Shown piece after piece: positions 2,087-30,103 of a stretch of DNA of 37,395 nt. How positions within the stretch are numbered: the first letter of the stretch is position 1; each line of letters begins with the position of its first letter. Below the pieces are notes generated by a model that did no database searches, was not told the DNA's origin, and saw only the letters and a program-made list of their open reading frames with translations. Made by a program: the position numbers and the translations under genes. Source of the DNA: a virus (lineage: Duplodnaviria; Heunggongvirae; Uroviricota; Caudoviricetes); the IMG/VR virus record IMGVR_UViG_3300045988_031779, positions 1 to 37,395 of that record. One strand, written 5' to 3'.

Positions 2087-2198
2087 TTTACATCGCACTC
2101 CTCTTGTGCCATAGTAATCGGGCACTGGCAAAATCCAGTGCCGGGATTGGCGTCCCGGGTTACTAAGTGGCGCATACCACGCCAGACGTGGTTTTTTT
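2087..2198 (+). ncRNA. Candidate structured leader or small RNA upstream of the Bro-N antirepressor, ending in an intrinsic terminator
   Basis: Stem-loops at 2121..2142 (GGCACTGG-caaaat-CCAGTGCC) and 2141..2158 (CCGGGA-ttggcg-TCCCGG), then terminator 2177..2198. No convincing ORF; track ORF 1997..2308 lacks a ribosome-binding site and crosses the terminator. Confidence 0.3.
2177..2198 (+). terminator. Intrinsic terminator (CCACG-ccaga-CGTGG followed by 7 T)
   Basis: 5-bp GC-rich stem followed by TTTTTTT on the plus strand, about 155 bp upstream of the Bro-N antirepressor start. Confidence 0.5.
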
Positions 2199-2354
2199 AT
2201 GCGTTAAGCACAGCTATATCCGAATTATGGTGGGCTGGGCAGGGGTCCGAAAGGACGCCGGTACCACTTAGGCCGGTACGCCAACCTTGTCCAGTTCACC
2301 ACCAGTAATTGGCGTTGCGGTGGTGATTAAAATCACTAAGTGGAGATAACCACC

Positions 2355-3065
2355 ATGGCTAATGCTCAAACTTCCATCTTCAAATTTGAATCTGTTAACC
2401 CTATCCGTTCCATCATTATCGATGGCCAACCATGGTTTGTAGCCCAAGACGTTTGTAGTGCGCTGCGTATCCAAAACGTCACCCAAGCACTTGAAAAACT
2501 GGATGATGATGAAAGGTCTATGTTCAACATAGGGCATGAACATCGTGCAATTTTTGACAGCCGAGTAAAAGAGATCAACATCATCTCCGAGTCAGGCCTC
2601 TACACACTGATCCTCCGCTGCCGCGACGCAGTGACACCAGGCACTATCCCCTACCGCTTTCGTAAATGGGTTACAGGTGAGGTTCTTCCTCAGATCCGCC
2701 GCACCGGAAGCTACATTAAAAACTCGCTCCCGCAGGAAGAACGCATAAAGATGGTTGCCGACCAGGTAGCCAACGCCACAGCATCAGCAGTGATGCAGGC
2801 AATGAAGATAGAGAACAAAACCTACAGCGCCCCACTGAAGCCCGGCTACCGCAGCCTGATTCATTCGCCGTCTGGTGTTCTCGGCCTGACGGAGCACTCA
2901 CTGCTGATGAATCTGCTGAACCAGTTACAGGACGACGGGCACGACGTATCGGGCGCGGCGGCGGAGCTGACCACCATGTTCTGCTACATCGTCGGTGTGA
3001 GCAAATGCCTGCGTGATATCCAGACCCACGCGGAGTACATCAACGACAAAGCAGGGTTCTTCTGA
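2355..3065 (+). CDS. Bro-N domain antirepressor with Ant/KilA-C-type C-terminal domain, 236 aa
   Basis: ATG at 2355 with GGAG 9 nt upstream (track ORF begins at GTG 2340 in the same frame). N-terminus IFKFESVNPIRSIIIDGQPWFVAQDVCSALRIQN matches the Bro-N signature; C-terminal domain is paralogous to 949..1206. Confidence 0.7.
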   Translation: MANAQTSIFKFESVNPIRSIIIDGQPWFVAQDVCSALRIQNVTQALEKLDDDERSMFNIGHEHRAIFDSRVKEINIISESGLYTLILRCRDAVTPGTIPYRFRKWVTGEVLPQIRRTGSYIKNSLPQEERIKMVADQVANATASAVMQAMKIENKTYSAPLKPGYRSLIHSPSGVLGLTEHSLLMNLLNQLQDDGHDVSGAAAELTTMFCYIVGVSKCLRDIQTHAEYINDKAGFF

Positions 3066-3136
3066 CGGGCGGCGGCACAGGGATGTGTCTTTAAATCATT
3101 CTGTACAGATTGCAGACTGGGAGTGAATAGCGTACT

Positions 3137-3153
3137 ATTACCCTAAAGGTAAA
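3137..3153. promoter_or_regulatory. Operator-like palindrome site 4: ATTACC-ctaaa-GGTAAA
   Basis: 26-42 nt upstream of the ATG at 3179. Confidence 0.45.
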
Positions 3154-3178
3154 CCATGTGTTTACATGAGGAGGAGAT

Positions 3179-3388
3179 ATGGGATTTTGGTTCGCTCGTA
3201 CAAAAACGAGGGATAATGCACCCAGCCCTCAGGCAAAAAATGCAGAAGTTCCGGCGTCAGCGCAGGTTAACAAGCGTGGTGGAGTATATATCTCATCACA
3301 GCAAATTTCTGAGCTTCCTGAGGTTAAAGAGATGCGTCGTCTCGCTGCTGCAATTGTTAAACAGGATCTTGCCACTGTAAGGAAATAG
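3179..3388 (+). CDS. Hypothetical small protein, 69 aa
   Basis: ATG at 3179 with strong GAGGAGGA upstream; ordinary GC content; stop overlaps the GTG start of the next gene (TAGTG). Confidence 0.45.
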   Translation: MGFWFARTKTRDNAPSPQAKNAEVPASAQVNKRGGVYISSQQISELPEVKEMRRLAAAIVKQDLATVRK

Positions 3389-4251
3389 TGTTGTTAGCTC
3401 TTCTAATTATCCCCATTCTGGTTAGTGGTTATATTATGATAACCGCTAACCAGTATCATTATTTCCGTTTATACCGACATGAAGGCCAGCTTCTTTATAT
3501 GAAAGTAGCTGCATTAGGTACATATTGCCTTGTTGCTTCAGTAATAATTGCCGCATTTATAAAATGTAAATATCCTGATTTTCACCTAGTTCACGACATG
3601 GTGGAAACTTTTAATGTAACGTCAAAACCAGAAACAGATAGAATTTACATGTGGCTACTTCTTCTGTCAGTCACATCAATTTGCTTCTCTTTGTGTTATG
3701 TATCTTTTGTTTGGCTAAAAGATCTTCTTTTAGGTTGTTTTTATAAACGTGATATTTATGACAAAATATCAGAGGCAATGAAAGCTAGAGTATTGCGAAA
3801 AACGTACTCCCAGGGTTCTTTAGATTTGCTATTGCTTGATGCAATCGAATCAGATCCTAAGAAACCAATGTTAATTACTTTATCATCAAATAAAGTATAC
3901 GTTGGAATAATAAATGGTTCTGGTGAGCCAACGGAAAATCAAGGGCCACACCAACACATATCTTTTGTTCCTTTAATGTCAGGGTACAGAAACAAAGAAA
4001 ATTTATCTGTTACATTTACAAACGCTTACCCAGGTGAAATCCAAATTAAGCGCAGTGCTGCGATAAAAGGGATAAGCAAAAAGAAAGTTCAAGGTCTAGA
4101 AATTATGGTATCTATAGACGAAATAAGTCATATATCATGGTTTGACTTTGAAGTATATAAGGCAACCAATAACAAAGTAGAAACAAAGGGTCATGTTGTT
4201 AATGTGACCAAAAATGGTCGCAACATATACTACAGAAGTGGCAGGAAATAA
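3388..4251 (+). CDS. Polytopic membrane protein (about 3 predicted TM helices plus ~170-aa soluble C-terminal domain), 287 aa, AT-rich cargo
   Basis: GTG start overlapping the upstream stop, GGAA 5 nt upstream. Hydrophobic segments LLALLIIPILVSGYIMI, VAALGTYCLVASVIIAAFI, MWLLLLSVTSICFSLCYVSFVW. Sequence visibly AT-rich compared with flanking phage genes (by eye, not computed). No family recognised. Confidence 0.6.
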   Translation: MLLALLIIPILVSGYIMITANQYHYFRLYRHEGQLLYMKVAALGTYCLVASVIIAAFIKCKYPDFHLVHDMVETFNVTSKPETDRIYMWLLLLSVTSICFSLCYVSFVWLKDLLLGCFYKRDIYDKISEAMKARVLRKTYSQGSLDLLLLDAIESDPKKPMLITLSSNKVYVGIINGSGEPTENQGPHQHISFVPLMSGYRNKENLSVTFTNAYPGEIQIKRSAAIKGISKKKVQGLEIMVSIDEISHISWFDFEVYKATNNKVETKGHVVNVTKNGRNIYYRSGRK

Positions 4252-18587: not shown

Positions 18588-18880
18588 TCCTGTTCACTGG
18601 CCTCTTTGGCCATCTTCAAATACTGTTCAGGGCAATGCGCCATAACGCGCTGAAACAGTTCCAGCGCCAGATTGCGTTGCCCCTCATTAAATGCCATTGC
18701 CATAGCGTCCATCGGTGAGATAGCGGAAAACACACGGCCTTTCTCCAGCACCGACCAGACAACGCGACGCCCCTGTTCACTGCTCATGACAAAGCGAATG
18801 TCATCAATTTCACGCTGCGCCATGTCACGTTGCTTACGGGCGTTTTCTTCTTTCAGTTGATCGTCTTCGTAATCTGTCAT
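18584..18880 (-). CDS. Hypothetical small head-assembly protein, 98 aa
   Basis: Coupled ORF between portal and scaffold genes (4-nt overlaps both sides). Confidence 0.45.
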   Translation of the reverse strand: MTDYEDDQLKEENARKQRDMAQREIDDIRFVMSSEQGRRVVWSVLEKGRVFSAISPMDAMAMAFNEGQRNLALELFQRVMAHCPEQYLKMAKEASEQE

Positions 18881-20556
18881 TGTGATTGCCCACCCTGACC
18901 ACTAACTGCATTCGCCATAGCTGACAAAACACTCGGATCCGAAGTTTTAGCTTCACTTAGCGTCTTGGCACCCTGTGCCGCCGCCATCCCCATCGCCATC
19001 ATTTGTTGCTGCTGTTGTTGCTGTGCCCGTTGCTGGCGAGCCTGCTCAACCTGTTCCTGCGGAACAATGACGGTTGGAGACACTCCGGACATATCAGCGA
19101 ATGCATCGATCGCCTGATCAACGTTGAGTTTGTCGAGAGCTTCTGGTTTCGCTTGCGCAAGTTGACCAATGAAGTTAACCGTGGACGCCAGACTGGACAG
19201 GCCGATAGACTTCTGCGCCTGAGCCATGACGGAAATGTATTCGACCTTCAGGGGCATGCCTTCCATCGCGTCAGGCGGTGGCGGCAGCATGTTTTTACGC
19301 ACCATCATCGAGAAAGAGCGATCAATGAGAGGATTAAGACATTCGTCGTTCAGGCGCTCCAGAACCGGCCCCAACATCAGAAGTTTTTCTTCTTTCATTT
19401 CGATCACCGCTTCCACAGGCATCGAGCGGGTATTGATGTTCTGCAACATCATGAACAGATCGACAAAGTAGGCGCTGTTAATGATTTGACGAGTGTCCTG
19501 AATGTCTGCCACCAAATCTGCTGTACTGGGGTTAACCAGATAAGCAGGCCTGAAACCATCCTGACCAGTAATCTGATCGATATACGTGATGTCGCCAGGA
19601 AGAAGGGAGGCACGCTGATTCTTGAGGGAAGTCGGAGCAACCATCGGCGGATTGGTAGCTTTATCAATCAACTGCGACTTGCGCTTCTGGAGAAGCTGCA
19701 ATGCCTTAACAGGTCCAAGCGCCAGCATACCCGGGCATGATGATCCATAAACATCTTCGCCGTTAACTTCCCAGCGCGGAGCCATAATTGGAAACTCATC
19801 GAATCCGGACTCACGCAACAACTTGTCGTTATCGCCACCAACCTCGTAATAAACCGATTTGAATGGCTTGTTCTTGCTATCCAGCTTCGATGTATCGCGG
19901 TCAATGTTCGGGTAAACCGAATGCATCACTTCAATCCACTTCTCGTAGGTGCCGCTTTCCCACATGCTTTTTACGGATTCGCTGACGTTATTTAGCCCGA
20001 ATTCCTGAACAAGCTGACGAACAGTCATAGAGAACTTGCGAAAACAGGTGTCCACACTGCCACGAGGTGAGTTAGCCAGGTAGTAACTGCCTATCGGGAA
20101 TGGCATTGTGCGAATGATGTCCTCGTCATCCTCCAGCACTGCCATTGCACCAGTGCTGTATGTGCCGAGGCTTCCGTATAACTGCGGCAGCGACTGATAG
20201 AGATTCGACTTATTGAACATATCGTTCATGCGGTTCTGCACCGCCTCAAGCCACAACTTAACAGGGCCATAATCCATCATTTCAGGATCTGGCGTAGCCA
20301 GGCGAAACCACGGACGCGCGGGGCTTGTGATGCCTGACATCATGCCGCTGGCGAGAGTGCGCGCCGCCATAGTCCCGGTCGAATCAATAATGCGTGTATT
20401 GCGTCGATCGTTACGGTTGACCTCAGAAGTCAGAAAGCGGGAACCACGCGGGTTGATGTAATCACTCAACTCGCGCCAGTGCGGCTCGAACGACTGACGC
20501 TCGCTTTCAAGTTGTGCGAACTGTTTGTTCAATCGCTCTTTAGTTGTTTCCGCCAT
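18877..20556 (-). CDS. Portal protein, 559 aa
   Basis: Size, position at the head of the structural block, Gln/Ala/Met-rich C-terminal tail typical of portal proteins. Confidence 0.7.
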   Translation of the reverse strand: MAETTKERLNKQFAQLESERQSFEPHWRELSDYINPRGSRFLTSEVNRNDRRNTRIIDSTGTMAARTLASGMMSGITSPARPWFRLATPDPEMMDYGPVKLWLEAVQNRMNDMFNKSNLYQSLPQLYGSLGTYSTGAMAVLEDDEDIIRTMPFPIGSYYLANSPRGSVDTCFRKFSMTVRQLVQEFGLNNVSESVKSMWESGTYEKWIEVMHSVYPNIDRDTSKLDSKNKPFKSVYYEVGGDNDKLLRESGFDEFPIMAPRWEVNGEDVYGSSCPGMLALGPVKALQLLQKRKSQLIDKATNPPMVAPTSLKNQRASLLPGDITYIDQITGQDGFRPAYLVNPSTADLVADIQDTRQIINSAYFVDLFMMLQNINTRSMPVEAVIEMKEEKLLMLGPVLERLNDECLNPLIDRSFSMMVRKNMLPPPPDAMEGMPLKVEYISVMAQAQKSIGLSSLASTVNFIGQLAQAKPEALDKLNVDQAIDAFADMSGVSPTVIVPQEQVEQARQQRAQQQQQQQMMAMGMAAAQGAKTLSEAKTSDPSVLSAMANAVSGQGGQSQ

Positions 20557-20570
20557 TTCAATGACTCCGG

Positions 20571-20777
20571 TTACTGACCAAGCAGCGTTTTACCGCTGGT
20601 ATTAGCGGTTGATGTGTCGCCCTGAGAACCGGTAAGCAGCGTAGAACTACGACCAGCAGCAGCGCGACGGCGACGAGTTTCTTCGTCGCGGGCATCAACA
20701 ACGGCGGCATCCTGCTCCTGTGGTGCTGCCTGAACTTCTGGTGTTGCAGGCACTGATGGTGAGCTACCCATGCACAT
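20571..20777 (-). CDS. Possible small acidic Ala-rich protein upstream of portal, 68 aa
   Basis: ATG at 20777 with GGAG about 9 nt upstream; low-complexity sequence; competing overlapping ORF 20558..20797 in another frame. Low confidence. Confidence 0.3.
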   Translation of the reverse strand: MCMGSSPSVPATPEVQAAPQEQDAAVVDARDEETRRRRAAAGRSSTLLTGSQGDTSTANTSGKTLLGQ

Positions 20778-20845
20778 ATCAATGACTCCGTACGCAATTA
20801 AATTACTACCAATTTAACCACATATGATTTATTTATCGTAGATAG

Positions 20846-20883
20846 TTGACATTTAACGCACAAATTATTACCTTTCAGGTAAC
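20846..20883 (+). promoter_or_regulatory. Rightward promoter candidate (TTGACA) overlapped by operator-like site 5 (ATTACC-tttca-GGTAAC, 20867..20883)
   Basis: Consensus -35 hexamer at 20846..20851; the palindrome sits where the -10 and transcript start would be; faces the tRNA and moron ORF. Confidence 0.4.
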
Positions 20884-21204
20884 CAAAGAGTTCATTCCGG
20901 TTACTAACCTGACTGGCTTGTCGTTAAATTGAACAGGTGGAGTGAGCTTTTATTTTGAGCAGTACGGCGTATGGCACATGCGCCGATAGCGGTCTGGATA
21001 CGTTTAAGGGGCACCCTCCCTGGCTGTGGCAAACGAACCAGGTAGCCGGAATGTGCAAGTCGAGCGGTTTTATTCCGCGCACGGGGATTCACCATCCCGG
21101 CGATTCGGTGTGACGCCTCGGAAGAGACGAGGGTACAACGATGAGAGCATTTATGGAGCCGCGACAAAGTGTGGCGCCTTAACAGGCTAAGTGCTCTCAG
21201 CGTT

Positions 21205-21281
21205 GTGGCATTAGCTCAGCTGGACAGAGCAACCGCTTTCTAAGCGGTTGGTCGCAGGTTCGAATCCTGCATGCCACGCCA
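21205..21281 (+). tRNA. tRNA-Arg (anticodon UCU)
   Basis: 77-nt cloverleaf folded by hand: 7-bp acceptor stem GTGGCAT/ATGCCAC, D arm GCTC/GAGC, anticodon stem ACCGC/GCGGT with loop TTTCTAA (anticodon TCT), T arm GCAGG-TTCGAAT-CCTGC, discriminator G, encoded CCA. Resembles enterobacterial argU-type tRNAs. Confidence 0.85.
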
Positions 21282-21324
21282 GAATCACGCCTAAGGACCG
21301 TGATGCCAGAAGTTCCAGGGGCTT

Positions 21325-21368
21325 GGCGGTGATGGTTTCCCTTGAAGGACTATCACCGCCCTTTTTAC
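21325..21368 (+). terminator. Intrinsic terminator after the tRNA (GGCGGTGAT ... ATCACCGCC followed by CTTTTT)
   Basis: 9-bp stem with a long loop followed by a T-run on the plus strand; a second GC hairpin plus T-run lies at 21445..21469 just before the ORF at 21479. Confidence 0.45.
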
Positions 21369-21478
21369 AGCATGACGCCATTGCGATGGCTTCATGCTGT
21401 AAACCAGTACAGCCACGGAAGGCATAACTCATTGCTTCCAGTTCGCCCGATTCGCCGGGCATTTTTTTTAGGTGAGAT

Positions 21479-21902
21479 CATGAAAACAGCCGACATGCTA
21501 GCTAAATATCTAAATGAATGGCCGTGCAAATATGTACGCATTGTTCAGGGTGATGACTCAATTTTTTATGGTGTTTTTGCAGGAAATGAAATGCTTTGTG
21601 AAGCAATTCCAGGTGAGCGACTTGCCGGGTTAACGCTTAGCGATGACCATGGAATAGGAGTTACTTGCCATGACTGGATTTCAGCGCAGAAAACTGAAAT
21701 GGAAAAAGGCAATGTGTTTGATATTTCTCGCGCTGTATACGCCAAAGAAAAAAGTGATGATGATTACATGCGCGAAAACTTATACAACATGAAGTTACAA
21801 TGCCTGGCTGAAGTGCTTAGTAAAAGATCTTTACTTGATGTGGTTGGTGCTGAGCAGGACGCCAAGGCAATCAACGCCGCATTCGATAAAATAACCTTCT
21901 AA
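21479..21902 (+). CDS. Hypothetical moron protein, 141 aa
   Basis: ATG at 21479 with GGTGAG 4 nt upstream (track ORF 21342..21902 is the same frame extended). Encoded on the strand opposite the flanking terminase and portal genes, downstream of the tRNA. No family recognised. Confidence 0.5.
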
Positions 21903-21992: not shown

Positions 21993-23468
21993 TTAAGCAT
22001 AGGGATCGTAATCTGTGATGGCCTTGCCTTGCTGGTTCTGCTGACCGGGAATTCGCAGACGCTTAGACACAGGGAACGCAAACGTCAGCAGTAGCGCATC
22101 GCCTTTACCCGGTGAACGCCCAAGCCGCTCCTTGATATCTTCCTTCGGTTCGATAACGATTTTACCGTCCACTCGAACTTTGTACTCTGCCGCCGACAGG
22201 TCGTCTGCTGTTTCCTGGTCATCCAGCATGCCGCCCAGCCTCAGCCATGTCTTGCATGAATTGAACATCTCCCCACGCTTGTTGAGCATCTGCGGGTCAG
22301 TAGACGCGCCACCGAACGGAACAAGTTGCCATGTACGACCCCAGCCGTCACCGATTGACTTCAAACCGGTTCCGTAACCGAAGTCGATGAACACCGCGTC
22401 AGCCTGATACTGGTCTTCAAAGTCAGCGATACGCTTCGCCATAATCAGATCGTCGGTAGTCTTGTTGCCAGTCCACAGCACCTTACTGTGTAGCCCCTGC
22501 CGCAGGTATATCACAGCGTCATCAACGCCGGAGTATGCCGGGTCAACGCCGATTATCACCGGAGCATGTGCAACCTGCGCAGCGGTTACCACCCGTTTCA
22601 TTGCCTCGTCAGTAAGACCGGTAGGGATAAACTGCAATTCAGATGCATCAGGGAATATGCCACGCACACGGATTTTAACGAAGTCGCTGTCTTCCCCGTA
22701 GTCATCAACCCATTTCTGCAACTGCTGTTTGTTAGTGCCTTCCACCGTCCGGCTGTCAATCTGCGCAGTTTTCCAGCGGTGTTTATATTTGCGGAAACAT
22801 TCGCGAAAACGCCCGGTGTTACGTGTAGGGTTTCCGAACGCCACCCAAATAATCTCAGTGTCTTCGTCCGTAAGCGCACCCTCGGCAACTTCCCACACCA
22901 GATCCGCAATGTTCGACGCTTCATCAAACACCACGATGATGCGTTTGCGCTCGTTGTGTAGTCCGGCGAATGCCTCGGTGTTGTGCTCAGACCAGGGTAT
23001 TGCGTCAGCCCGCCACCGCTTGTCGTGCCCTAGGTCATTGCTGTACATCGCGGTAGCGGTACAGGTAAACCAGTCTTTCGTGATAGCAAGGTTCGACCAC
23101 TTGATAATTTCCGGCCAGGTCTTCGTTCGTAGCTGGTTGTCGGTGTTGGCGGTCACCACGACCTTACAATCCTCGCAAGTGGACATGCCCCAGTTGATCA
23201 GCATTGAGATGAATGCGGATTTACCAATACCGTGACCAGAAGCGCGTGCCAGCATAAGCGGCTGATAGCGCGTCTCTGGATTCTGCAGGTGATCACGTAT
23301 CTCTCGGAACGCATCAGCCTGCCACTGACGTGGGCCGGTGGCATGTGCCAGTTCAGTCCCCTCTTCCCCCCATGGGAACGCATAGAGGGCATAGCCAAGC
23401 GGATCGTGAGTGAACCCTGCAATATCCTCGATTAACTGCTCTTCAGGAGATAACGCTGTATCTGTCAC
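21993..23468 (-). CDS. Terminase large subunit, 491 aa
   Basis: Size, ATPase-like N-terminal region and acidic nuclease-like C-terminal region, 4-nt overlap with the small subunit gene upstream. Confidence 0.8.
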   Translation of the reverse strand: MTDTALSPEEQLIEDIAGFTHDPLGYALYAFPWGEEGTELAHATGPRQWQADAFREIRDHLQNPETRYQPLMLARASGHGIGKSAFISMLINWGMSTCEDCKVVVTANTDNQLRTKTWPEIIKWSNLAITKDWFTCTATAMYSNDLGHDKRWRADAIPWSEHNTEAFAGLHNERKRIIVVFDEASNIADLVWEVAEGALTDEDTEIIWVAFGNPTRNTGRFRECFRKYKHRWKTAQIDSRTVEGTNKQQLQKWVDDYGEDSDFVKIRVRGIFPDASELQFIPTGLTDEAMKRVVTAAQVAHAPVIIGVDPAYSGVDDAVIYLRQGLHSKVLWTGNKTTDDLIMAKRIADFEDQYQADAVFIDFGYGTGLKSIGDGWGRTWQLVPFGGASTDPQMLNKRGEMFNSCKTWLRLGGMLDDQETADDLSAAEYKVRVDGKIVIEPKEDIKERLGRSPGKGDALLLTFAFPVSKRLRIPGQQNQQGKAITDYDPYA

Positions 23469-24061
23469 TGATTGCCATCCTGACGTTCTTTCAGTCTCTT
23501 CCTGGCTGCCGCTATGCGATCAGCAATTGTCACATTCACATTAACATCCAGGCGTTCTTTGAATGCGTTGACGTCGACGTGCTTACCAATCAGTTCGAGG
23601 TTCTTCACCTTGTCAGGCCATTTAATTTTTTTGAGGATTGTCTCTATCGAATCCTCGTTCATGTTCATGATGGTCGATGACAGATCAAAGCCACTAAGCG
23701 TAGTGCGCCAGATTTTCGGCCACTCGCGGATTGGCTTAAGGCTCCCATCGTCGTTGAGGATGTCGATCACGTCCATCTGGTCGATCTCCACCAGGCGCAT
23801 GAGAACGTAATCAGCACTGACGCGCATTCGTTTGTTGCGCTCTTCCATCAGCTCGGCAATCCGTTTTTGAATGCGTTCATCGCGCATCATGAGACTGGCT
23901 TTAACTGCCGCTGTATTTGGGGAGAATCCTGCGTTAATCGCTGCCTGAGTCTGGTTTTCAGGCGTTTTGATGTATGACTGGCAATAAGCCTCCTGCATTG
24001 CTGTTAGTGGCTTAAATTGCGTTGATTTGCGTTTATAGGTTTTAGGTTCAGCAGGCATCAT
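23465..24061 (-). CDS. Terminase small subunit, about 198 aa
   Basis: Start preferred at the ATGATG at 24061; the track start at 24139 adds an N-terminal extension (TITTTVTITTVV) that is the translation of a direct DNA repeat and reads through a terminator. Motif PLTAMQEAYCQSYIKTPENQTQAAINAGFS resembles small-terminase N-terminal DNA-binding domains. Confidence 0.6.
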   Translation of the reverse strand: MMPAEPKTYKRKSTQFKPLTAMQEAYCQSYIKTPENQTQAAINAGFSPNTAAVKASLMMRDERIQKRIAELMEERNKRMRVSADYVLMRLVEIDQMDVIDILNDDGSLKPIREWPKIWRTTLSGFDLSSTIMNMNEDSIETILKKIKWPDKVKNLELIGKHVDVNAFKERLDVNVNVTIADRIAAARKRLKERQDGNQ

Positions 24062-24077
24062 AACCACCGTGGTAATA

Positions 24078-24094
24078 GTTACCGTTGTGGTAAT
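24078..24094. promoter_or_regulatory. Operator-like palindrome site 6: GTTACC-gttgt-GGTAAT, embedded in direct repeats GTGGTAATAGT
   Basis: 17-33 nt upstream of the small terminase start; direct repeats GTGGTAATAGT at 24069..24079 and 24087..24097. Confidence 0.4.
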
Positions 24095-24112
24095 AGTACC
24101 ATGCAAAATAAA

Positions 24113-24130
24113 GCCGCCATAGTTGGCGGC
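24113..24130 (-). terminator. Intrinsic terminator on the minus strand (GCCGCC-aactat-GGCGGC followed by TTTATTTTG)
   Basis: 6-bp GC stem with T-rich tail in the minus-strand sense, between the last early gene (24180..24518) and the terminase genes. Confidence 0.45.
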
Positions 24131-24170
24131 AGTATTCAAAACCCATCAAATTCATCATGCATAACCCACT

Positions 24171-24185
24171 CGTGACATGTCACAA
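24171..24185. repeat. 15-bp element CGTGACATGTCACAA (copy 2)
   Basis: Identical to 21906..21920; overlaps the stop of 24180..24518. Confidence 0.6.
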
Positions 24186-24518
24186 TATTAATTTCGTTTC
24201 ATGCCAGCCTTTAGTCACCCAGCATTGCGAGTCACCATTACACGGGCATGAATTCACAGGAACTCTCTCGCCGCACTTACCGCAACGTTTTCTGCTGATC
24301 GATTTTATACGCCCGTGCACGCGCGCATCATCCTGGCGGATCAGTAACGCTATATACTCACCAAATTCGTAAGGCGCACGCCCGGGGCGACGTGTGGCAC
24401 AGTTACGCTCCAGCATTTCAATTTCCTGAGCATCAAGCACAATCTCCAGCTTACGCACACCAGATGCAGCTTGTCTGGCTCCCTGAGCGGCTTTGCGCTC
24501 TGCTGCTGATTTAGCCAT
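24180..24518 (-). CDS. Zinc-ribbon protein, candidate late-gene regulator, 112 aa
   Basis: Basic N-terminal half and C-terminal Cys cluster RKRCGKCGERVPVNSCPCNGDSQC; last gene before the terminator and terminase block. Function inferred from position only. Confidence 0.5.
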   Translation of the reverse strand: MAKSAAERKAAQGARQAASGVRKLEIVLDAQEIEMLERNCATRRPGRAPYEFGEYIALLIRQDDARVHGRIKSISRKRCGKCGERVPVNSCPCNGDSQCWVTKGWHETKLIL

Positions 24519-24873
24519 TCTGATTTTCCTGCATCATGAGAAATACAATCATGGCGGCGCGGAGAACATTTTCATGCTCATGCTCCCAAATAGGGTTGGC
24601 AGAAGCACCGTGCAAACCGCTTTCGTTCCAGTCCCAGAGAATGTTAACTCCGTTATCAGCAATAATCGGCCATGCATCTGCTGGGTTTGCGCATGGGTTA
24701 AAGGATCCGCGCTCAACTTCTACTTCAACTGCGTCTCCGTTTACAATGTCTCCCTCAAATGAGATAAACACCATCGCGCCATTCTCACCTTCTTTGTAAT
24801 CCGGTGATCCGTTATGAATGGCTTCGAATACCGCCGCGTTAATTTCAAAATCACTTAACTGTGAATAGTCCAT
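24511..24873 (-). CDS. Hypothetical acidic protein, 120 aa
   Basis: Start preferred at ATG 24873 (AGGAGG 7 nt upstream, ATGA overlap with the upstream stop) rather than the track start at 25020. Confidence 0.5.
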   Translation of the reverse strand: MDYSQLSDFEINAAVFEAIHNGSPDYKEGENGAMVFISFEGDIVNGDAVEVEVERGSFNPCANPADAWPIIADNGVNILWDWNESGLHGASANPIWEHEHENVLRAAMIVFLMMQENQNG

Positions 24874-25754
24874 CACTTCACCTCCTGCGGCGGTTCTGGC
24901 AGCGGCATCCAGTACAAGGCGTTCCCTAACCACGATAAAGTGCCGTCGCTCAACTCCACGTATTCCCCTTGTACCTGTCCTGCCATATACTCGCCGTGCT
25001 TTGAATAAATTAAAATCCAATCATCTTGAGCGGGCATTCGCTCACTACAGCTTATCCAACCATCCGGAGTTACCGGAACTTGTGGAATGGCTGTCTGCTC
25101 TCGAACGTCATTAGGCGCTATAGGTTCTGCTGCCAACTGACTGGCATATTTGTTAATGGTAACGATAAGCTCTTGCTCAGCCTCATCCAGACAATCACCG
25201 ATACCTCGCCTGTCACCGTCAAAATCATCGAAATCGGCACGAATCCTGGCAACCTTCAGGATTGCGGACAACACCTCACTAGGAATTGCCGGATAGTTGG
25301 TTGACGTTTCCGCGATTTCCCGAAAATTATTGGTTGACGAATTCTTGTTTTCCCGAAAGTTTCCGGACTGAAGCATGGCGGCGCGGCAGGCGTTCCAGGC
25401 AAATAGTGCGGCTTCTTCCACTGAAGGCGGAGAGTATCGCTCGATAAACGCCTGTGCATTTGACAGCCTCCACTCATGAGGCAATACCGGCGCTGGCGGG
25501 GCGATGCGTCCAAGCAACTTATTTACCTCTTTCGCCATCGCGTCATATTTATCTAAATAGCGATTAGCTTCTAAGCAGACTCGGTGCATCTGATCTGAGT
25601 TAACTCGTTTAACGGGATCTGCTTCCAGCGATGCCAGTGCAATCCGTGCCAGTTCTTCCGCTTCTTCTGCTGGCAGTACAACGTTGCTACCCGGTCCGTA
25701 TGTTTCGCGCCACTGCTTGATTGTCAGCAGTCGCCCTTTGGTAATAGTGATCAT
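24873..25754 (-). CDS. Phage protein with DUF551-like C-terminal domain, 293 aa
   Basis: C-terminal WISCSERMP...LYWMPLPEPP matches the DUF551 signature common in enterobacterial prophages. Confidence 0.55.
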   Translation of the reverse strand: MITITKGRLLTIKQWRETYGPGSNVVLPAEEAEELARIALASLEADPVKRVNSDQMHRVCLEANRYLDKYDAMAKEVNKLLGRIAPPAPVLPHEWRLSNAQAFIERYSPPSVEEAALFAWNACRAAMLQSGNFRENKNSSTNNFREIAETSTNYPAIPSEVLSAILKVARIRADFDDFDGDRRGIGDCLDEAEQELIVTINKYASQLAAEPIAPNDVREQTAIPQVPVTPDGWISCSERMPAQDDWILIYSKHGEYMAGQVQGEYVELSDGTLSWLGNALYWMPLPEPPQEVK

Positions 25755-26266
25755 GCCGCGTTTCCTTCTTTCTTATTAACAATCACACCGTCATATATTT
25801 CATTAAGGTGCCCTCTCAACTCCATGCGCCTTAATGCAGATAACATGTAATCGCATTCAACCTGCTTATTCCCGGTAAATGGCTTATCGTCAGGATTACC
25901 CCAACAGCAATTACCCCTGGGCCATCCATGTACTTTCCGTACTCTTCCGTTAACAACGTGAAGTAATCCCCAGCCGGGAGGTAAATCCTCAACTGAAATA
26001 ATTTCCGGCTCACTAATAAAGAATCGCCAGTCGCCCATGCCAAGTGAGGGATTTTTACGGAAACGCTTTTTTCTATCTGCCAACAAGTCAGCACGAGAAC
26101 ACTTCGCCTCTATCAGGCATGATGCTGAATTTCTGAATCCCATAGCATCTGGCTGTTCTCCGGTACTGGTTACAGCAACAAAGCGGTCATGAAAGCAAAC
26201 CTTGAACCCGTTGCGCTTAAGGAACTTGTACGCAATCTGACAGAGTTCGTGGTGTGTTAACGCCAT
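25751..26266 (-). CDS. Putative PD-(D/E)XK-fold nuclease, 171 aa
   Basis: Motif QPD...CLIEAKCS consistent with a PD-x(n)-E-x-K active site; 4-nt overlap with the next gene. Fold assignment is inference. Confidence 0.4.
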   Translation of the reverse strand: MALTHHELCQIAYKFLKRNGFKVCFHDRFVAVTSTGEQPDAMGFRNSASCLIEAKCSRADLLADRKKRFRKNPSLGMGDWRFFISEPEIISVEDLPPGWGLLHVVNGRVRKVHGWPRGNCCWGNPDDKPFTGNKQVECDYMLSALRRMELRGHLNEIYDGVIVNKKEGNAA

Positions 26267-26267
26267 A

Positions 26268-26843
26268 TCACTCTCCTTTGATGCGAATGTCAGCGACGCG
26301 TAATGCGTGTTCTAGGTCAATCAGGTAAAGCCAACTGCCATTTTCTTTAGGTATCATGACTTGTCGCTCATCTGCATTTATGGGGTGTCCATATCGAAGG
26401 TCGTAGCGAGTCGGTAATTGAACTTCCCGCGCTTCCAGTTCAGCAATACGCTTGCACCCATCAGAGATAACTCCCTCGTAATACTCGCGCTGCTCGTTGA
26501 GTTTTGATTTTGTCTCCTCAAGCTCAACGCGCAGCTTCCCAACCGTAAGCGCAATATCCTCGTTCTCCTGGTCGCGGGATTTGATGTATTGCTGGTTTCT
26601 TTCCCGTTCTTCCAGAAGCGCCTGCACTACTTCAGGGTTGAAAGCTGCGATATAACGAGCGTTGTTCTCTGCGTTTTTCTGTTCGTCGAATCCTGGCCAG
26701 TCGACAATATCTCCGTGATGATTATCACCTGGTGTGTGCACGGCGTACGTGCCGTATTTGCCCGGCGAAATAAATGCGACCCATTCGCCTTGTGTTGCCT
26801 GTTTTGCTATCTCACGCAGTGCCTGGTAATTAATTTCGCTCAC
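26268..26843 (-). CDS. Ead/Ea22-like protein, 191 aa
   Basis: N-terminus MSEINYQALREIAKQATQGEWVA typical of Ead/Ea22-like proteins; coiled-coil centre. Confidence 0.6.
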   Translation of the reverse strand: MSEINYQALREIAKQATQGEWVAFISPGKYGTYAVHTPGDNHHGDIVDWPGFDEQKNAENNARYIAAFNPEVVQALLEERERNQQYIKSRDQENEDIALTVGKLRVELEETKSKLNEQREYYEGVISDGCKRIAELEAREVQLPTRYDLRYGHPINADERQVMIPKENGSWLYLIDLEHALRVADIRIKGE

Positions 26844-27643
26844 TGGTTGCCTCCTTTGCGAAGCTCTGCGGCAAAATCAGTCGCATGCTCACCGAGTAGT
26901 TTCCAGTTATCGCGTATATCAGATGCAAGCGACTGTTCGGATTTTGAGTTACATTTCTGTGCAAACATCTCCAATCCCTGCGCCCGCACTTCAGCCAGGC
27001 ATTTGCGAAACTCGGAAACGTACTGTTCGACGCTCATTCCCCAGCTAAGTGGACATTCATTGAATGTTTCGCCTTCGTGCTCTTCATCAGGTAGCTCTTT
27101 GGTAAAGAACTCACGTTCAATGGCGTGGAGTGTGTCAGCAAAACGACGTAAGTTACTCAAACCTGTCGTAATGGAGAATTCAGGAGCATCACATCCGACG
27201 CCCATCTGCTGATAAACGGCGGTTTTGAAGGCCTTAAGCCCCGCATTCTCCGCTGCCAGCGCCGTGAAATTACCCTCCAGCTCTGCAATGCGCTGTTTTG
27301 CGGTATCAAGTTCAATCGATAATTTTTCCAACTGCTCTTTATGCTTCTTGTATTCCTGATATGCGTGCCAGGACTGACCTTTGCGCACACTATCAGTAAT
27401 ATCAGTAATCTGTTCTGGTGTTAGCGTGGTCAGTGGCTGTGCTGGGAAAATCAGCACTTTCCCGGAATCCCAATCAAAACCAGCGTGAATTGACTGAACC
27501 TCAACTGAGGGTGTTGAACCAATGCTGCCAGGCGAATGAACAACGATCGTTACATCCATATCGCGACGATGGCTGTGGTTGTTGGACAAAATACGATTCA
27601 ACAAAATACGATTCACCAACTCAGAAAATTTGGAGAATTTCAT
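26840..27643 (-). CDS. Ead/Ea22-like coiled-coil protein, about 267 aa
   Basis: Shares the ALAAENAGLKA coiled-coil motif with 28059..28775. Start preferred at ATG 27643 (GAGG 7 nt upstream); track start 27655 is TTG. Confidence 0.5.
   Translation of the reverse strand: MKFSKFSELVNRILLNRILSNNHSHRRDMDVTIVVHSPGSIGSTPSVEVQSIHAGFDWDSGKVLIFPAQPLTTLTPEQITDITDSVRKGQSWHAYQEYKKHKEQLEKLSIELDTAKQRIAELEGNFTALAAENAGLKAFKTAVYQQMGVGCDAPEFSITTGLSNLRRFADTLHAIEREFFTKELPDEEHEGETFNECPLSWGMSVEQYVSEFRKCLAEVRAQGLEMFAQKCNSKSEQSLASDIRDNWKLLGEHATDFAAELRKGGNQ
27586..27615. repeat. Perfect tandem duplication of 15 bp (ACAAAATACGATTCA x2)
   Basis: Direct read; lies in the 5' end of the ORF 26840..27643 and encodes NRILLNRIL. 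Confidence 0.8.
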
Positions 27644-27651
27644 GCGGAGCC

Positions 27652-28062
27652 TCAATATGCAAAATAGACCGTTGCCACGCCGTTATAGTGATCAAACGAT
27701 ACGGCGTTTACTTCATAACTGGCCGGGAGCTTCGAGCCAAGAACGTATCCGGGCCACGTTTTCCATGGAATTTCTCTATTCTCACTACCCCCATATACCG
27801 TACATCCAAGTGAACCTACAGCTTCATTAGAACGCGTGCCGCACGTTATGAATCCCAGATTTTGCTTACTGCTCTTAATGGTGATTGAGTGAACGCTGGC
27901 TGATGCATTAGCAGCACGCTGTGCCTGTTGGTTTGCGATATTCGCAGAGTTCGCAGCAGCTACAGCAGCCGTAGTCGCGGCGGTAGAGGCTACAATAGCT
28001 GCTGAAGCATGCACTTGTTGGATATTCACCAACAATGCCGCGATAAAAATCATCTTCTTCAC
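27652..28062 (-). CDS. Secreted protein with signal peptide and Ala/Thr/Asn-rich low-complexity region, 136 aa
   Basis: N-terminus MKKMIFIAALLVNIQQVHA is Sec-signal-like; C-terminal domain with two Cys; no family recognised. Confidence 0.5.
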   Translation of the reverse strand: MKKMIFIAALLVNIQQVHASAAIVASTAATTAAVAAANSANIANQQAQRAANASASVHSITIKSSKQNLGFITCGTRSNEAVGSLGCTVYGGSENREIPWKTWPGYVLGSKLPASYEVNAVSFDHYNGVATVYFAY

Positions 28063-28775
28063 TTGTCAGCTCCTTTGCGAATCTGTTCCGCCCATTCTTC
28101 AAGGGATTTCTCCGCATATTCACCAGACAGGCCATCAATCGGATGCGCTTCATTAGCCAACTCTTCTTTCGCTGACAAAATCATGCGTGTAACGTCGAAA
28201 ACTTCACGCAAAGACTTATTGATAAATCCGTGATTGAACGCAGCAGCAAGACGGCTGGCGGTATAGTTAACTCCCTCGTTGCGTGCTTCCGCACGAATTT
28301 CAGCCATGAAAGCGTCGGTGGCTGGGGTTTCGATATTAGGCAGAAGCGCATAATCGCAAATCGTATCGATCGCAGGATCACAACAGTCATCCTCGTTGCG
28401 TGGTCGTTCGCCAACCTTCGTTGACGATTGCATGATGATTCCCCAGCAAATACTATCGACCTCTTCGCTCCATCCATCGCAAGCATCACCGCGATAGTCG
28501 TCGATTGCAGCCTCAGCCGATTCGATAGCTTCCTCAGCAGTTTTGTGCCATTCGAAATTATGCTCAGAGCCATATGAGAAATATGAATGTCCCGCCTTCA
28601 GCCCCGCATTCTCCGCCGCCAGCGCATTAGCACGCACCAGTTGCACTTCCAGTTGCGTTGCCAAATCGCTGATCAGCTTTGCCACACTGCGCATATCAAC
28701 GGCACCACATTCTGCTTTCAGTTCCGAAGCCATCTCATGCCCGGCGGAAACTAACCCTTTGATATTACTTTCCAT
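28059..28775 (-). CDS. Ead/Ea22-like protein, 238 aa
   Basis: Coiled-coil ALAAENAGLKA motif shared with 26840..27643; acidic and Trp-rich C-terminal region. Confidence 0.55.
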   Translation of the reverse strand: MESNIKGLVSAGHEMASELKAECGAVDMRSVAKLISDLATQLEVQLVRANALAAENAGLKAGHSYFSYGSEHNFEWHKTAEEAIESAEAAIDDYRGDACDGWSEEVDSICWGIIMQSSTKVGERPRNEDDCCDPAIDTICDYALLPNIETPATDAFMAEIRAEARNEGVNYTASRLAAAFNHGFINKSLREVFDVTRMILSAKEELANEAHPIDGLSGEYAEKSLEEWAEQIRKGADK

Positions 28776-28836
28776 CTTTACCCTCGCTTATCCACATAAC
28801 TTATTGATTACATTGATAACTAAAAAGATCGTCGAT

Positions 28837-29184
28837 TCAGAACTCTTCGATGTTCCAGCCACCACCTGCTTTCTTTGGCTTAACCGTTACCCCGATGATT
28901 CGGAACGGATACTGATCTGCGGCGACTTTGGTTTTCACTCTGGCGTCATCGGTCCAGAATCCCCCTTTCACTTCGTGCAGTTCCACCTCGCCGGTGGCGA
29001 GCATCACAGCAAAATCTGGCGTATAGAACGTGTTGTCAGCTAACCGCAGCTTGATACCCTCAAATCGATACCAGACGATTTCTCCTGCACGTTTACGCAG
29101 CTCAAGGTGCTGGCAATACGCAGATTCTGTTTTGTTCATCTGGCCTGTTTTGAGTCGACCAAGAGCCTGCATCTGTTTTCTCAT
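28837..29184 (-). CDS. DUF1064-like putative PD-(D/E)XK nuclease, 115 aa
   Basis: Motifs YTPDF and ELHEVKG fit a D...E-x-K nuclease core; first gene downstream of the replication genes. Confidence 0.45.
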   Translation of the reverse strand: MRKQMQALGRLKTGQMNKTESAYCQHLELRKRAGEIVWYRFEGIKLRLADNTFYTPDFAVMLATGEVELHEVKGGFWTDDARVKTKVAADQYPFRIIGVTVKPKKAGGGWNIEEF

Positions 29185-29186
29185 GA

Positions 29187-29203
29187 TTTACCCCTTAGGT
29201 AAT
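29187..29203. promoter_or_regulatory. Operator-like palindrome site 7: TTTACC-cctta-GGTAAT
   Basis: 4-20 nt upstream of the start codon at 29184. Confidence 0.45.
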
Positions 29204-29248
29204 TAAAAACCACATAAGACACGAAATCAATAGATTTTAGAATATTTT

Positions 29249-29265
29249 ATTACCCCTAAGGTAAT
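29249..29265. promoter_or_regulatory. Operator-like palindrome site 8: ATTACC-cctaa-GGTAAT
   Basis: Perfect palindrome about 45 bp from site 7, in the gap between the P-like gene and the DUF1064-like gene. Confidence 0.5.
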
Positions 29266-29302
29266 TATCGAGACGTAAAAAAAATGCGCTATCGCGCTGG
29301 TA

Positions 29303-30103
29303 TTACTTGATAAATCCTGACGCCTTTCCCCGCCTGTATTCCTCCATCAGCCACTGCGCCGGTGTTATTCCCCCAAGGGTGGCGGCGTTAGGCATGCACC
29401 CGAAACTTCGCCCTGGTGGATGGTAAACGTCTCTCCCTGTGTCCGGAGGCGTACTCATGGGTTCTGGCTTTGCCTGTATGCTGATCACCGGATCGGGTAT
29501 CTGCTGTCCGGAAGCCACCTTTTTCGCCCAATCATCGAGCAGCCTGCGCGCGTGTTTCTCAACCTCAATCTCGCTAAGCTGGCGCTGATACATTGCACGG
29601 CGGGTATCACATACGACCCAGTACATAACCGGATGTCGCCACGGGAATCTTTCGGGACCACCAGGATATAAACTTTTTTCCTTGCTGTACCGGTGAAACT
29701 CCGCCATCACATCGTCAATGGTGACGCCAAGAACCATCTTGCTGTCTTTACACCACTTGATGAATTGCCCTGGCGACGGCCAGAACGGAGACTCACTGGC
29801 GCGGGCGTGGCGCATACCAGCAGAAACCTGTTCACGGGTTCGGATCCCACCTTCGGCAAACGCAGCAATCCACTGCTGTTTTGCAGCAACTTCCTGCTCT
29901 GGCGTCTTCAGGTTGGTTACCACTGCCGCCGGAAACAGTTGTTTCAGCTGTTTGAAAAGGGCATCAACAAGCCTCTCTGCTGACATGTTCACCACGTTGT
30001 CATTGTTGGTGTACTGATGCTCATAACCTGACATGCGAGAAAGGGCTTCTCCGTCACGGTTTTGTATCGCGGTAAAAACGTTGTTCACAAGAAATCCTCC
30101 CAT
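29303..30103 (-). CDS. Replication protein P-like helicase loader, 266 aa
   Basis: Segment KQQWIAAFAEGGIRTREQVSAGMRHARASESPFWPSPGQFIKWC aligns by eye with lambda P (RRQWVLAFRENGITTMEQVNAGMRVARRQNRPFLPSPGQFVAWC); directly follows the O-like gene. The start overlaps the O-like gene by 19 nt and may be downstream. Confidence 0.7.
   Translation of the reverse strand: MGGFLVNNVFTAIQNRDGEALSRMSGYEHQYTNNDNVVNMSAERLVDALFKQLKQLFPAAVVTNLKTPEQEVAAKQQWIAAFAEGGIRTREQVSAGMRHARASESPFWPSPGQFIKWCKDSKMVLGVTIDDVMAEFHRYSKEKSLYPGGPERFPWRHPVMYWVVCDTRRAMYQRQLSEIEVEKHARRLLDDWAKKVASGQQIPDPVISIQAKPEPMSTPPDTGRDVYHPPGRSFGCMPNAATLGGITPAQWLMEEYRRGKASGFIK

Follow-up and report, generated by a model that had tools for sequence, protein, structure and literature searches.

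We analysed a window of 37,395 nucleotides (nt) of viral DNA, the whole stretch held in IMG/VR record IMGVR_UViG_3300045988_031779, and focused on positions 20884-21204. The source DNA is a prophage of the phiV10/epsilon15 type (Uetakevirus), and positions 20780-21480 were 98% identical to phage phiV10 in a BLAST comparison. The region is carried on a plus-strand insert, flanked on one side by the portal gene (18877-20556) and a small gp3-like gene (20571-20777) and on the other by the large terminase gene (21993-23468), all three on the minus strand. The original prediction, made from the sequence alone, had described it as non-coding, GC-rich DNA lying between an operator-controlled promoter and a tRNA. 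The boundary was placed correctly: the region stops at a tRNA-Arg(UCU) with an encoded CCA, at 21205-21281 on the plus strand (ARAGORN; Rfam tRNA model, 71.1 bits). Its GC content indeed exceeds that of the window, but only moderately (53.6% versus 48.2%, with 60.4% in the conserved core described below). Overall, 20884-21204 most likely makes up the first two-thirds, from the 5' end, of an early unit under repressor control that produces RNAs and not protein. It comprises three RNA modules: a leader hairpin (P0), the core and a long hairpin (P6). The complete unit appears to run from promoter and operator through P0, core, P6, tRNA-Arg(UCU) and a 3' hairpin to a terminator. It is highly likely that the region specifies a structured RNA that has a function and belongs to a genuine family.

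Relaxed promoter scoring of the sequence placed an early promoter with an overlapping operator at 20846-20882 on the plus strand, with a -35 box TTGACA (20846-20851) and a -10 box TACCTT (20869-20874) separated by a 17-nt spacer; a stricter consensus scan called no promoter in 20700-21600. Transcription would start at about 20881-20884. The -10 box is enclosed by the palindrome TTACCTTTCAGGTAA (20868-20882), and since the window contains 14 copies of this palindrome where 0.64 would be expected, describing the promoter as operator-controlled was reasonable. The copies of the palindrome, TTACCnnnnnGGTAA, are located at 858, 1978, 2071, 3138, 20868, 24061, 24079, 29188, 29250, 31221, 31558, 31606, 32318 and 32380. 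These scattered sites look like the dispersed operator set of one repressor, as known for C1 in phage P1, and the homologous place in epsilon15 bears an annotated "repressor" site.

The conserved core spans ~170 nt (20964-21132, plus strand) and was delineated using two alignments (A1 and A2), RNAalifold, pair counts and R1, a covariance model of the core with 160 positions. It is composed of helix P1 (20965-20973 with 20977-20985), an invariant long-range helix (20990-20993 with 21045-21048), P2 with its variable tip (20994-20996 with 21039-21041), P3, which encloses a variable hairpin (21059-21061 with 21099-21101), P4 (21084-21087 with 21095-21098) and P5 with the loop GAAGAGA (21116-21120 with 21128-21132). 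A pseudoknot joins CACC in the P4 loop (21090-21093) to GGUG at 21107-21110. P4 corresponds to the inverted repeat GGGGATTCACCATCCC, which had been pointed out around 21081-21100; the repeat is real and forms a covarying helix (GGGA/TCCC, ACGA/TCGT, ACGC/GCGT). The core is followed by P6, a long hairpin supported by pair counts, UACAACGAUGAGAGCA ... UGCUCUCAGCGUUGUG, which occupies 21134-21207 on the plus strand (21134-21153 with 21188-21207) and has a hypervariable tip, V1 (~21154-21187). The 3' strand of P6 closes with the junction GUUGUGG and takes in G1, U2 and G3 of the tRNA (21205-21207).

The covariation evidence for this fold is extensive. Alignment A1 contained 36 copies, each less than 90% identical to the rest, and RNAalifold predicted 48 pairs from it, of which 24 showed compensatory substitutions. 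Across all 52 pairs, obtained by adding the four-pair pseudoknot, 95.7% of the cells were standard-paired, compared to 32-44% in a slid control in which the 3' partners were displaced by 1-3 columns. The comparative alignment suggested as a check in the original prediction uncovered compensatory changes in 25 of the 52 pairs (147 cells), a level reached by none of 500 shuffles. In the pseudoknot, AACC was always accompanied by GGUU and CACC always by GGUG, with no exception in ~190 instances, and 10 of the 17 pairs of P6 were changed on both sides. P0 (20886-20951, plus strand), identified by minimum free energy folding, RNAalifold on 29 leaders and pair counts, has a basal helix of 20888-20897 with 20940-20949; in alignment A3, 96.7% of its cells were paired versus 22-58% when slid, and two pairs were altered on both sides.

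At many positions, copies differ by having G-C or G-U, or else A-U or G-U. Such G-U pairs would become A-C mismatches on the opposite strand, and therefore the RNA is the plus strand, on which the promoter and the tRNA lie too. The plus strand folds at -102.1 kcal/mol (z = -3.7 relative to shuffles) and the minus strand at -88.1 kcal/mol. Together, the compensatory changes in at least 25 pairs and the strand-specific G-U pairs indicate selection on the RNA fold. The invariant blocks of the core, AUGGCACAUG, AGCGGUC and GGUAGCCGGAAUGUGCAAG, fall in loops and junctions, and invariant stretches of up to 19 nt are kept across otherwise unrelated backbones.

R1 returned a single match per locus, with 122-164 bits. 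On 20962-21135 it scored 144.2 bits (E = 1.9e-43), a value that is partly circular because the window copy belongs to the seed alignment. The features by which we propose to define the family, namely an R1 match, the invariant blocks and the CACC:GGUG pairing, are all found here, and independent support comes from the BLAST identity and the pair counts. None of the 4227 models of Rfam 15, which include GOLLD, ROOL, C4, isrK, STnc100, riboswitches and ribozymes, produced more than chance-level matches over the element when we scanned the window at the gathering threshold, 20700-21500 at E <= 10, 32 related loci at the gathering threshold and L001 (the mEp460 locus) 2950-3540 at E <= 10. A resemblance to 5S ribosomal RNA and to RNase P CR-I, seen by eye, had no Rfam support and was dropped. 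We also rejected two further structural candidates. A second pseudoknot, between the P1-helix loop GGCACAU and AUGUGC, is invariant on both sides, and its rare GGAACAU variants are uncompensated. A boxA/boxB/boxC-like arrangement of P5 and the P6 3' strand (UGCUCUUU..GUUGUGG) is a coincidence, as the variants GAGCUAC, GCGCUCC and GUCAUCU keep the pairing and not boxA; in addition, no N-like protein is encoded after pL.

According to BLAST, the region in its full length is common to phiV10-like phages only, and different parts of it extend to different distances. The first 80 nt (20884-20963, including P0) are restricted to the epsilon15/phiV10 group. Positions 20964-21204 are ~81% identical to unannotated DNA after cI in mEp460, cdtI, Stx2c and Stx2a phages, and 20964-21126 are ~79-81% identical to the trnI-ban interval of P1, P7, D6, SJ46 and RCS47. 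Shorter cores were found in Klebsiella, Enterobacter and Salmonella, and in one Stenotrophomonas phage record. In every context the 5' similarity border lies at ~20964 and the element is oriented along the transcription unit. Of 5426 complete E. coli genomes, 1064 had a BLAST match, and no annotated feature accompanied any of the matches listed. An exact 19-mer of the core occurred on 24 contigs, 22 of which came from Enterobacterales genomes (~20 species), and two pattern scans of IMG/VR yielded at least 120 matches each. The same fold, on the same strand and with the same sharp borders, has thus spread horizontally among P1-like, lambdoid/Stx and epsilon15-like phages. The unit is clearly a mobile module, and since the borders are sharp and the distribution is mosaic, the segment moves by recombination. 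Mobile as the module is, the RNA itself does not look like the remnant of a recombination junction that the original prediction had named as a simple explanation that would refute it.

Partial copies were also informative as to how the unit is built. In epsilon15 (L003 1453-1619), all that is left is P0 together with ~60 nt from the start of the core, which R1 scores at 32.8 bits; its record marks an "RNaseIII" processing site over P0, assigned to the opposite (late) strand. In Klebsiella-type relatives, the P0 sequence resembles P6 (CACAAC-AUGAAAGCGCAC ... GUGCGCUUCCAG-GUGUG). Phages P1 (L006 1499-1678) and P7 (L002 2999-3177) carry an unannotated, 3'-truncated core between trnI and ban, in which the core continues to P5 and is followed directly by ban, with P6 absent. 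The full unit, including an RNA in the position of the tRNA, is found in the P1-like elements L092, L147 and L168.

The promoter context recurs as well. Among 90 distinct upstream contexts, many place the element 5-120 nt downstream of operator-covered promoters, and in a few the -10 box stops only 4-5 nt short of helix P1. In lambdoid and Stx phages, core and P6 lie just past pL. For example, the cI terminator of mEp460 (2868-2888) is followed by two operator-like TTGCAnnnnnnGCAA sites over the -35 and -10 boxes, resembling those between cI and cro, and the element begins ~40 nt further on; the first early-left protein of this phage is not N-like. In P1-likes, the element is located 12 nt after trnI, in an operon annotated as C1-controlled in the P7 record, and the P1-like copy L092 has no terminator after the tRNA position. 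The genes downstream have no visible promoters. The element therefore keeps a constant place, either past operator-covered early promoters or within the C1-controlled ban operon of P1, and from this promoter-proximal, operator-covered position we infer that the RNA would be produced soon after a phage infects or is induced, and that lysogens would not make it.

The window also carries an isrK RNA (67.7 bits, 2122-2198, plus strand) adjoining a C4 antisense RNA (66 bits, 2223-2306, plus strand), both detected with Rfam; the two together form an immunity/antirepressor RNA module of the immI type, comparable to the one in P1 and P7. An isrK and C4 pair occurs in mEp460 too (L001 706-894), ~2.2 kb off the RNA element. 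A linkage between this module and the element was considered, and in the available flanks it was seen in the mEp460-type lambdoid group only, which is uninformative.

Comparison of the 3' parts revealed that the tRNA is only one possible occupant of its position, which we refer to as the slot. Of 147 unique copies, 108 have the junction GUUGUGG at the end of P6. Its GUUGUG forms the base of P6 by pairing with an upstream YRYAAC, whose three variable positions are restricted to bases that preserve the pairing. In most of the other copies, the slot holds a non-tRNA RNA of 75-200 nt closed by GUUGUGG...CCACAAC, and the short repeats CACAAC and GTTGTGG border the exchangeable parts. The tRNA-Arg thus occupies an exchangeable slot of a conserved unit; here the base preceding it is U, and the junction is conserved. 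Regarding the region as a tRNA precursor leader was correct as to position, as it fills the interval from promoter to tRNA and P6 reaches tRNA positions 1-3. It is not a leader specific to tRNA-Arg, since the core also precedes non-tRNA RNAs and, in P1, ban. The other proposal, an independent structured RNA, agreed well with a covarying pseudoknotted fold that is conserved also where no tRNA comes next.

The commonest slot class, which we term type A, has the form GUGGUGAAU-GCGCA-GGCUGA-UGCGC ... variable 30-140 nt ... GCCGG-AGAUCAGCA-CCGGC-CACCAC. Both of its hairpins covary and their loops are complementary (GCUGAU:AUCAGC, with the compensatory variant ACUGA:UCAGU), and we model type A as a tRNA-shaped RNA. 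The conserved ends of type A were identified in 124 phage records, among them HK620 and virulent phages of Klebsiella and E. coli; none is annotated as RNA, and type A had no Rfam match. Examples are L001:3238-3372 (mEp460), L197, L188 and L208, and others reside in GC-rich contigs. Upstream of type A there is often a P6-like hairpin alone, a tRNA or tRNA cluster, or a promoter directly. A string search with sequences of the core and of type A, covering literature outside subscription journals, retrieved no relevant paper; given the literature that is searchable, the core and P6 family and type A may have been described before.

Several copies have more elaborate slots. We observed a tandem arrangement of a P5-like hairpin, CACAAC, a P6-like hairpin, GUUGUGG and slot RNA, and long or tandem slots in L016:1719-2300, L026 and L041, in which both a P5-like hairpin with the loop GGAAAGAC and the CACAAC ... 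GUUGUGG module occur several times. One slot stretch, GAGGAAAGACCGGGC, recalls RNase P CR-I, which we take to be a coincidence. Known RNAs were met in two of the related sequences: Enterobacter phage Tyrion carries the Rfam int-alpA RNA (L005:2708-2772), and an IMG/VR contig carries STnc100 (L192:6865-7071) ~6 kb away from a type A RNA.

Beyond the tRNA, the unit ends with a 3' hairpin, AUCACG-CCUAAGGAC-CGUGAU (21284-21304, plus strand), which comparison of the post-slot sequences placed after the slot in most units, and an intrinsic terminator, GGCGGUGAU...AUCACCGCC followed by CUUUUU (21325-21366, plus strand; terminator scan). Other units keep a GGCGG...CCGCC terminator with a U-run, which is part of the mobile module. 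Further downstream on the plus strand are a hairpin (~21372-21403), a second terminator with a T-run (21445-21460, terminator scan), which stops ~10 nt before the next open reading frame (ORF), and the ORF itself (21480-21902), which encodes 140 amino acids and belongs to PHROG 4846 with no Pfam family. As there is no room for a promoter after the second terminator, this ORF seems to need read-through from the promoter at 20846. The 3' tail of the unit was confined to the 504 genomes of the phiV10 type, as a rule with a single copy in each (median 1). We considered whether this 3' tail is the prophage Pas small RNA (bioRxiv 10.64898/2026.05.13.724894); the two are probably different, as PasA has 2105 matches and is often multicopy, and the 3'-tail strings did not occur in the one supplement searched.

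Taken together, these observations suggest the following explanation, which as a whole we believe to be correct with a probability of roughly 55%. The unit would be transcribed upon infection or induction, and RNase P would cleave between U21204 and G21205, thereby freeing the tRNA and fixing where the RNA upstream of it terminates at its 3' side. P0 and P6 would serve as punctuation, that is, as processing or protective hairpins between RNA modules, and the released core would persist as a stable RNA whose invariant junctions may bind a conserved host component. The step targeted by the core could be either host takeover or counter-defence. At the base of P6, the six-base pairing YRYAAC:GUUGUG would compete with the stem that closes the slot RNA, and because these GUUGUG pairings compete, there is probably a fixed sequence in which the core/P6 and slot domains fold or mature. 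A processed, stable RNA fits the P1-likes, where the core lies among tRNAs in an operon and the slot of L092 has no terminator. The processing and trans-acting mechanism as written here is tentative, and we would place it somewhat below even odds.

Several results weigh against this explanation. That RNase P and RNase III cut the transcript and that the core is stable are predictions from sequence features. The P1 operon with its truncated copy is dispensable for plaque formation, and tciA-C, trnI and ban around that copy were non-essential in a CRISPR interference screen (PMC10695390). Except in P1-likes, the core comes first after the promoter and terminators precede genes without promoters, an arrangement that fits a role in cis as well. 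An antisense-target search detected no complementarity of 14 nt or more elsewhere in the window. Moreover, type A was found without core motifs upstream in 63 of the 112 instances with enough sequence, and 65 of 87 further loci with the type A pattern had no R1 match, with no intermediate scores; conversely, the core lacks a slot RNA in P1, and the junction is missing from 39 of the 147 copies. Since each occurs without the other, the coupling of core and slot is not obligatory.

A more ambitious version of the RNA reading, which we regard as rather speculative, is an RNA-only modular early-gene system of enterobacterial phages, in which the core would act on the polymerase or sense a signal, P0 and P6 would punctuate, and the slot would deliver a tRNA or a type A RNA with its hypervariable insert. 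Such a system would suit an arms race with host defences that target tRNAs or sense RNA, and would make the core and type A new functional RNA classes in textbook phages (P1, Stx phages and HK620).

Among the alternatives, the one that survives best is a put-like cis antiterminator, in which the nascent core would bind the RNA polymerase that made it and let it read through the terminators downstream, so that ORF 21480-21902 of the window and, in lambdoid phages, the early-left operon could be expressed. The location of the core agrees well with it: in many backbones the core lies 5-120 nt past operator-covered early promoters, its mEp460 copy comes after the cI terminator and a region resembling oL/pL, and one or two terminators come next, before genes without a visible promoter. 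With a first early-left protein that is not N-like, an RNA mechanism would also fill a gap, and the putL element of HK022, just past PL, works independently of protein (PMC9378689). We nevertheless consider it unlikely. R1 reached at best 4.5 bits, with filters off, against HK022 23000-30000, where put should lie going by the usual gene order, and put, with ~70 nt and two stem-loops, differs from a core of ~170 nt with a pseudoknot. The core is present in a single copy per phage, with none in the pR-type operon. The terminator moves with the module, which would be odd for a built-in antiterminator; the P1-like unit of L092 has no terminator after it, and epsilon15 keeps terminator and ORF with a mere remnant of the core.

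Less likely still is a riboswitch-like or T-box-like sensor, whose junctions would bind a small molecule or an RNA, with the alternative GUUGUG pairing gating slot maturation or read-through. The long invariant junction stretches, the peripheral hairpins of variable length and the pseudoknot are reminiscent of large aptamers; both mutually exclusive six-base pairings (the P6 5' YRYAAC and the slot stem) are conserved, and the element sits at the 5' end of an operon. Yet there is no ligand candidate and no expression platform common to all contexts, phage P1 lacks P6, a slot filled with a tRNA offers no 3' CACAAC competitor, and no Rfam riboswitch model matched.

The unit could also be a sponge that titrates a host protein such as CsrA through looped GGA motifs, an option we view as improbable. 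Conserved GGA-bearing loops do exist, the candidates being GCCGGAAUG, the P5 loop GGAAGAGA, UAAGGAC in the 3' hairpin and GAAGGAC in the terminator, and L016, L026 and L041 repeat GGAAAGAC hairpins within their long slot inserts. However, the number of GGA triplets appears to be no higher than chance for ~500 nt, and conservation reaches well past these motifs. The consensus of CsrA has A or G before GGA, which the two best-conserved motifs, with a C in that position, fit poorly.

Slightly weaker again is the option that there is no role at the RNA level, the region being a plain 5' leader of the tRNA, a recombination scar or a DNA site (origin, att or pac). The sharp borders, the mosaic distribution and the CACAAC/GTTGTGG repeats that flank the exchangeable parts could be read this way, but such a site would account neither for at least 25 compensated pairs and strand-specific G-U pairs nor for the uniform orientation with the transcription unit and for invariant stretches of up to 19 nt across unrelated backbones.

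Finally, a protein-coding gene or a decayed second tRNA has next to no chance: the minus-strand ORF at 20904-21167 is real (87 amino acids, TTG start), and annotators drew hypothetical ORFs across the homologous DNA in the mEp460 and Tyrion deposits, but indels that are not multiples of three disrupt the overlapping frame in 35 of 35 aligned homologues, the strand and frame of the longest open frame vary among copies, ARAGORN found a single tRNA, the covarying fold is not a cloverleaf, and the Rfam tRNA model had no match in 20884-21204 even at E <= 10. The original prediction was therefore right that the region is non-coding and holds no credible ORF, and its suggestion of a degraded second tRNA did not survive; the Infernal/Rfam scan and tRNA pseudogene search it had recommended yielded neither a known family nor a pseudogene over the region. 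The "hypothetical protein" ORFs deposited over the element or the tRNA on either strand, namely L001:2943-3311 (mEp460_037), L005:1711-1872, L013:1511-1753 and phiV10p04 (L004:2828-3079), are probably mis-annotations.

If confirmed, the element would constitute a well-supported new family of structured RNAs in P1/P7, Stx-converting and phiV10/epsilon15 phages. It concerns ~20% of complete E. coli genomes, in which annotation pipelines leave this DNA blank or call spurious ORFs. An RNA that is the first product of repressor-controlled early promoters and is coupled to a tRNA or tRNA mimic would point to an undescribed, RNA-based early step in infection or induction. The analysis also makes accessible a second unannotated RNA, type A, in 124 phage records and corrects several "hypothetical proteins". 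P1 and E. coli lysogens offer easy systems in which to test these predictions.

The nearest known kind is that of the large tRNA-associated phage RNAs GOLLD and ROOL. Their genes lie close to tRNA islands, with tRNAs sometimes inside the GOLLD linker; their function is unknown, and ROOL was reported to be non-essential (PMC12286853). Like them, the RNA described here is phage-borne, has a covarying pseudoknotted fold, adjoins a tRNA and tolerates variable inserts. In contrast to them, it is not matched by the GOLLD and ROOL models, is smaller (~170-245 nt for core and P6 and ~480 nt for the unit, versus ~580-800 nt), belongs to Enterobacterales hosts and is placed directly after repressor-controlled early promoters. 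This placement is shared with put of HK022, an RNA at the start of an early operon that follows a repressor-controlled promoter, has terminators downstream and requires no protein (PMC9378689). The core, too, is promoter-proximal and has terminators ahead of genes without promoters, and antitermination here would be a conjecture from this layout; put, however, occurs in both early operons as ~70 nt with two stem-loops, whereas the core is a single-copy, pseudoknotted element of ~170 nt. Small stable phage RNAs are cut by RNase P from the leader of a repressor-related operon in the case of C4 RNA (P1/P7) and CI RNA (P4). These are antisense regulators of ~70-90 nt with known targets, whereas the RNA described here has no complementarity of 14 nt or more in the window, and the C4 model matches 2223-2306 only and not 20884-21204. 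For the proposed processing, MALAT1-mascRNA, in which a tRNA or tRNA-like structure directly downstream lets RNase P determine where the preceding RNA ends, and the "species 1 and 2" of the T4 tRNA cluster, which are stable non-tRNA RNAs co-transcribed with phage tRNAs, may serve as analogies of mechanism, with no relation in sequence.

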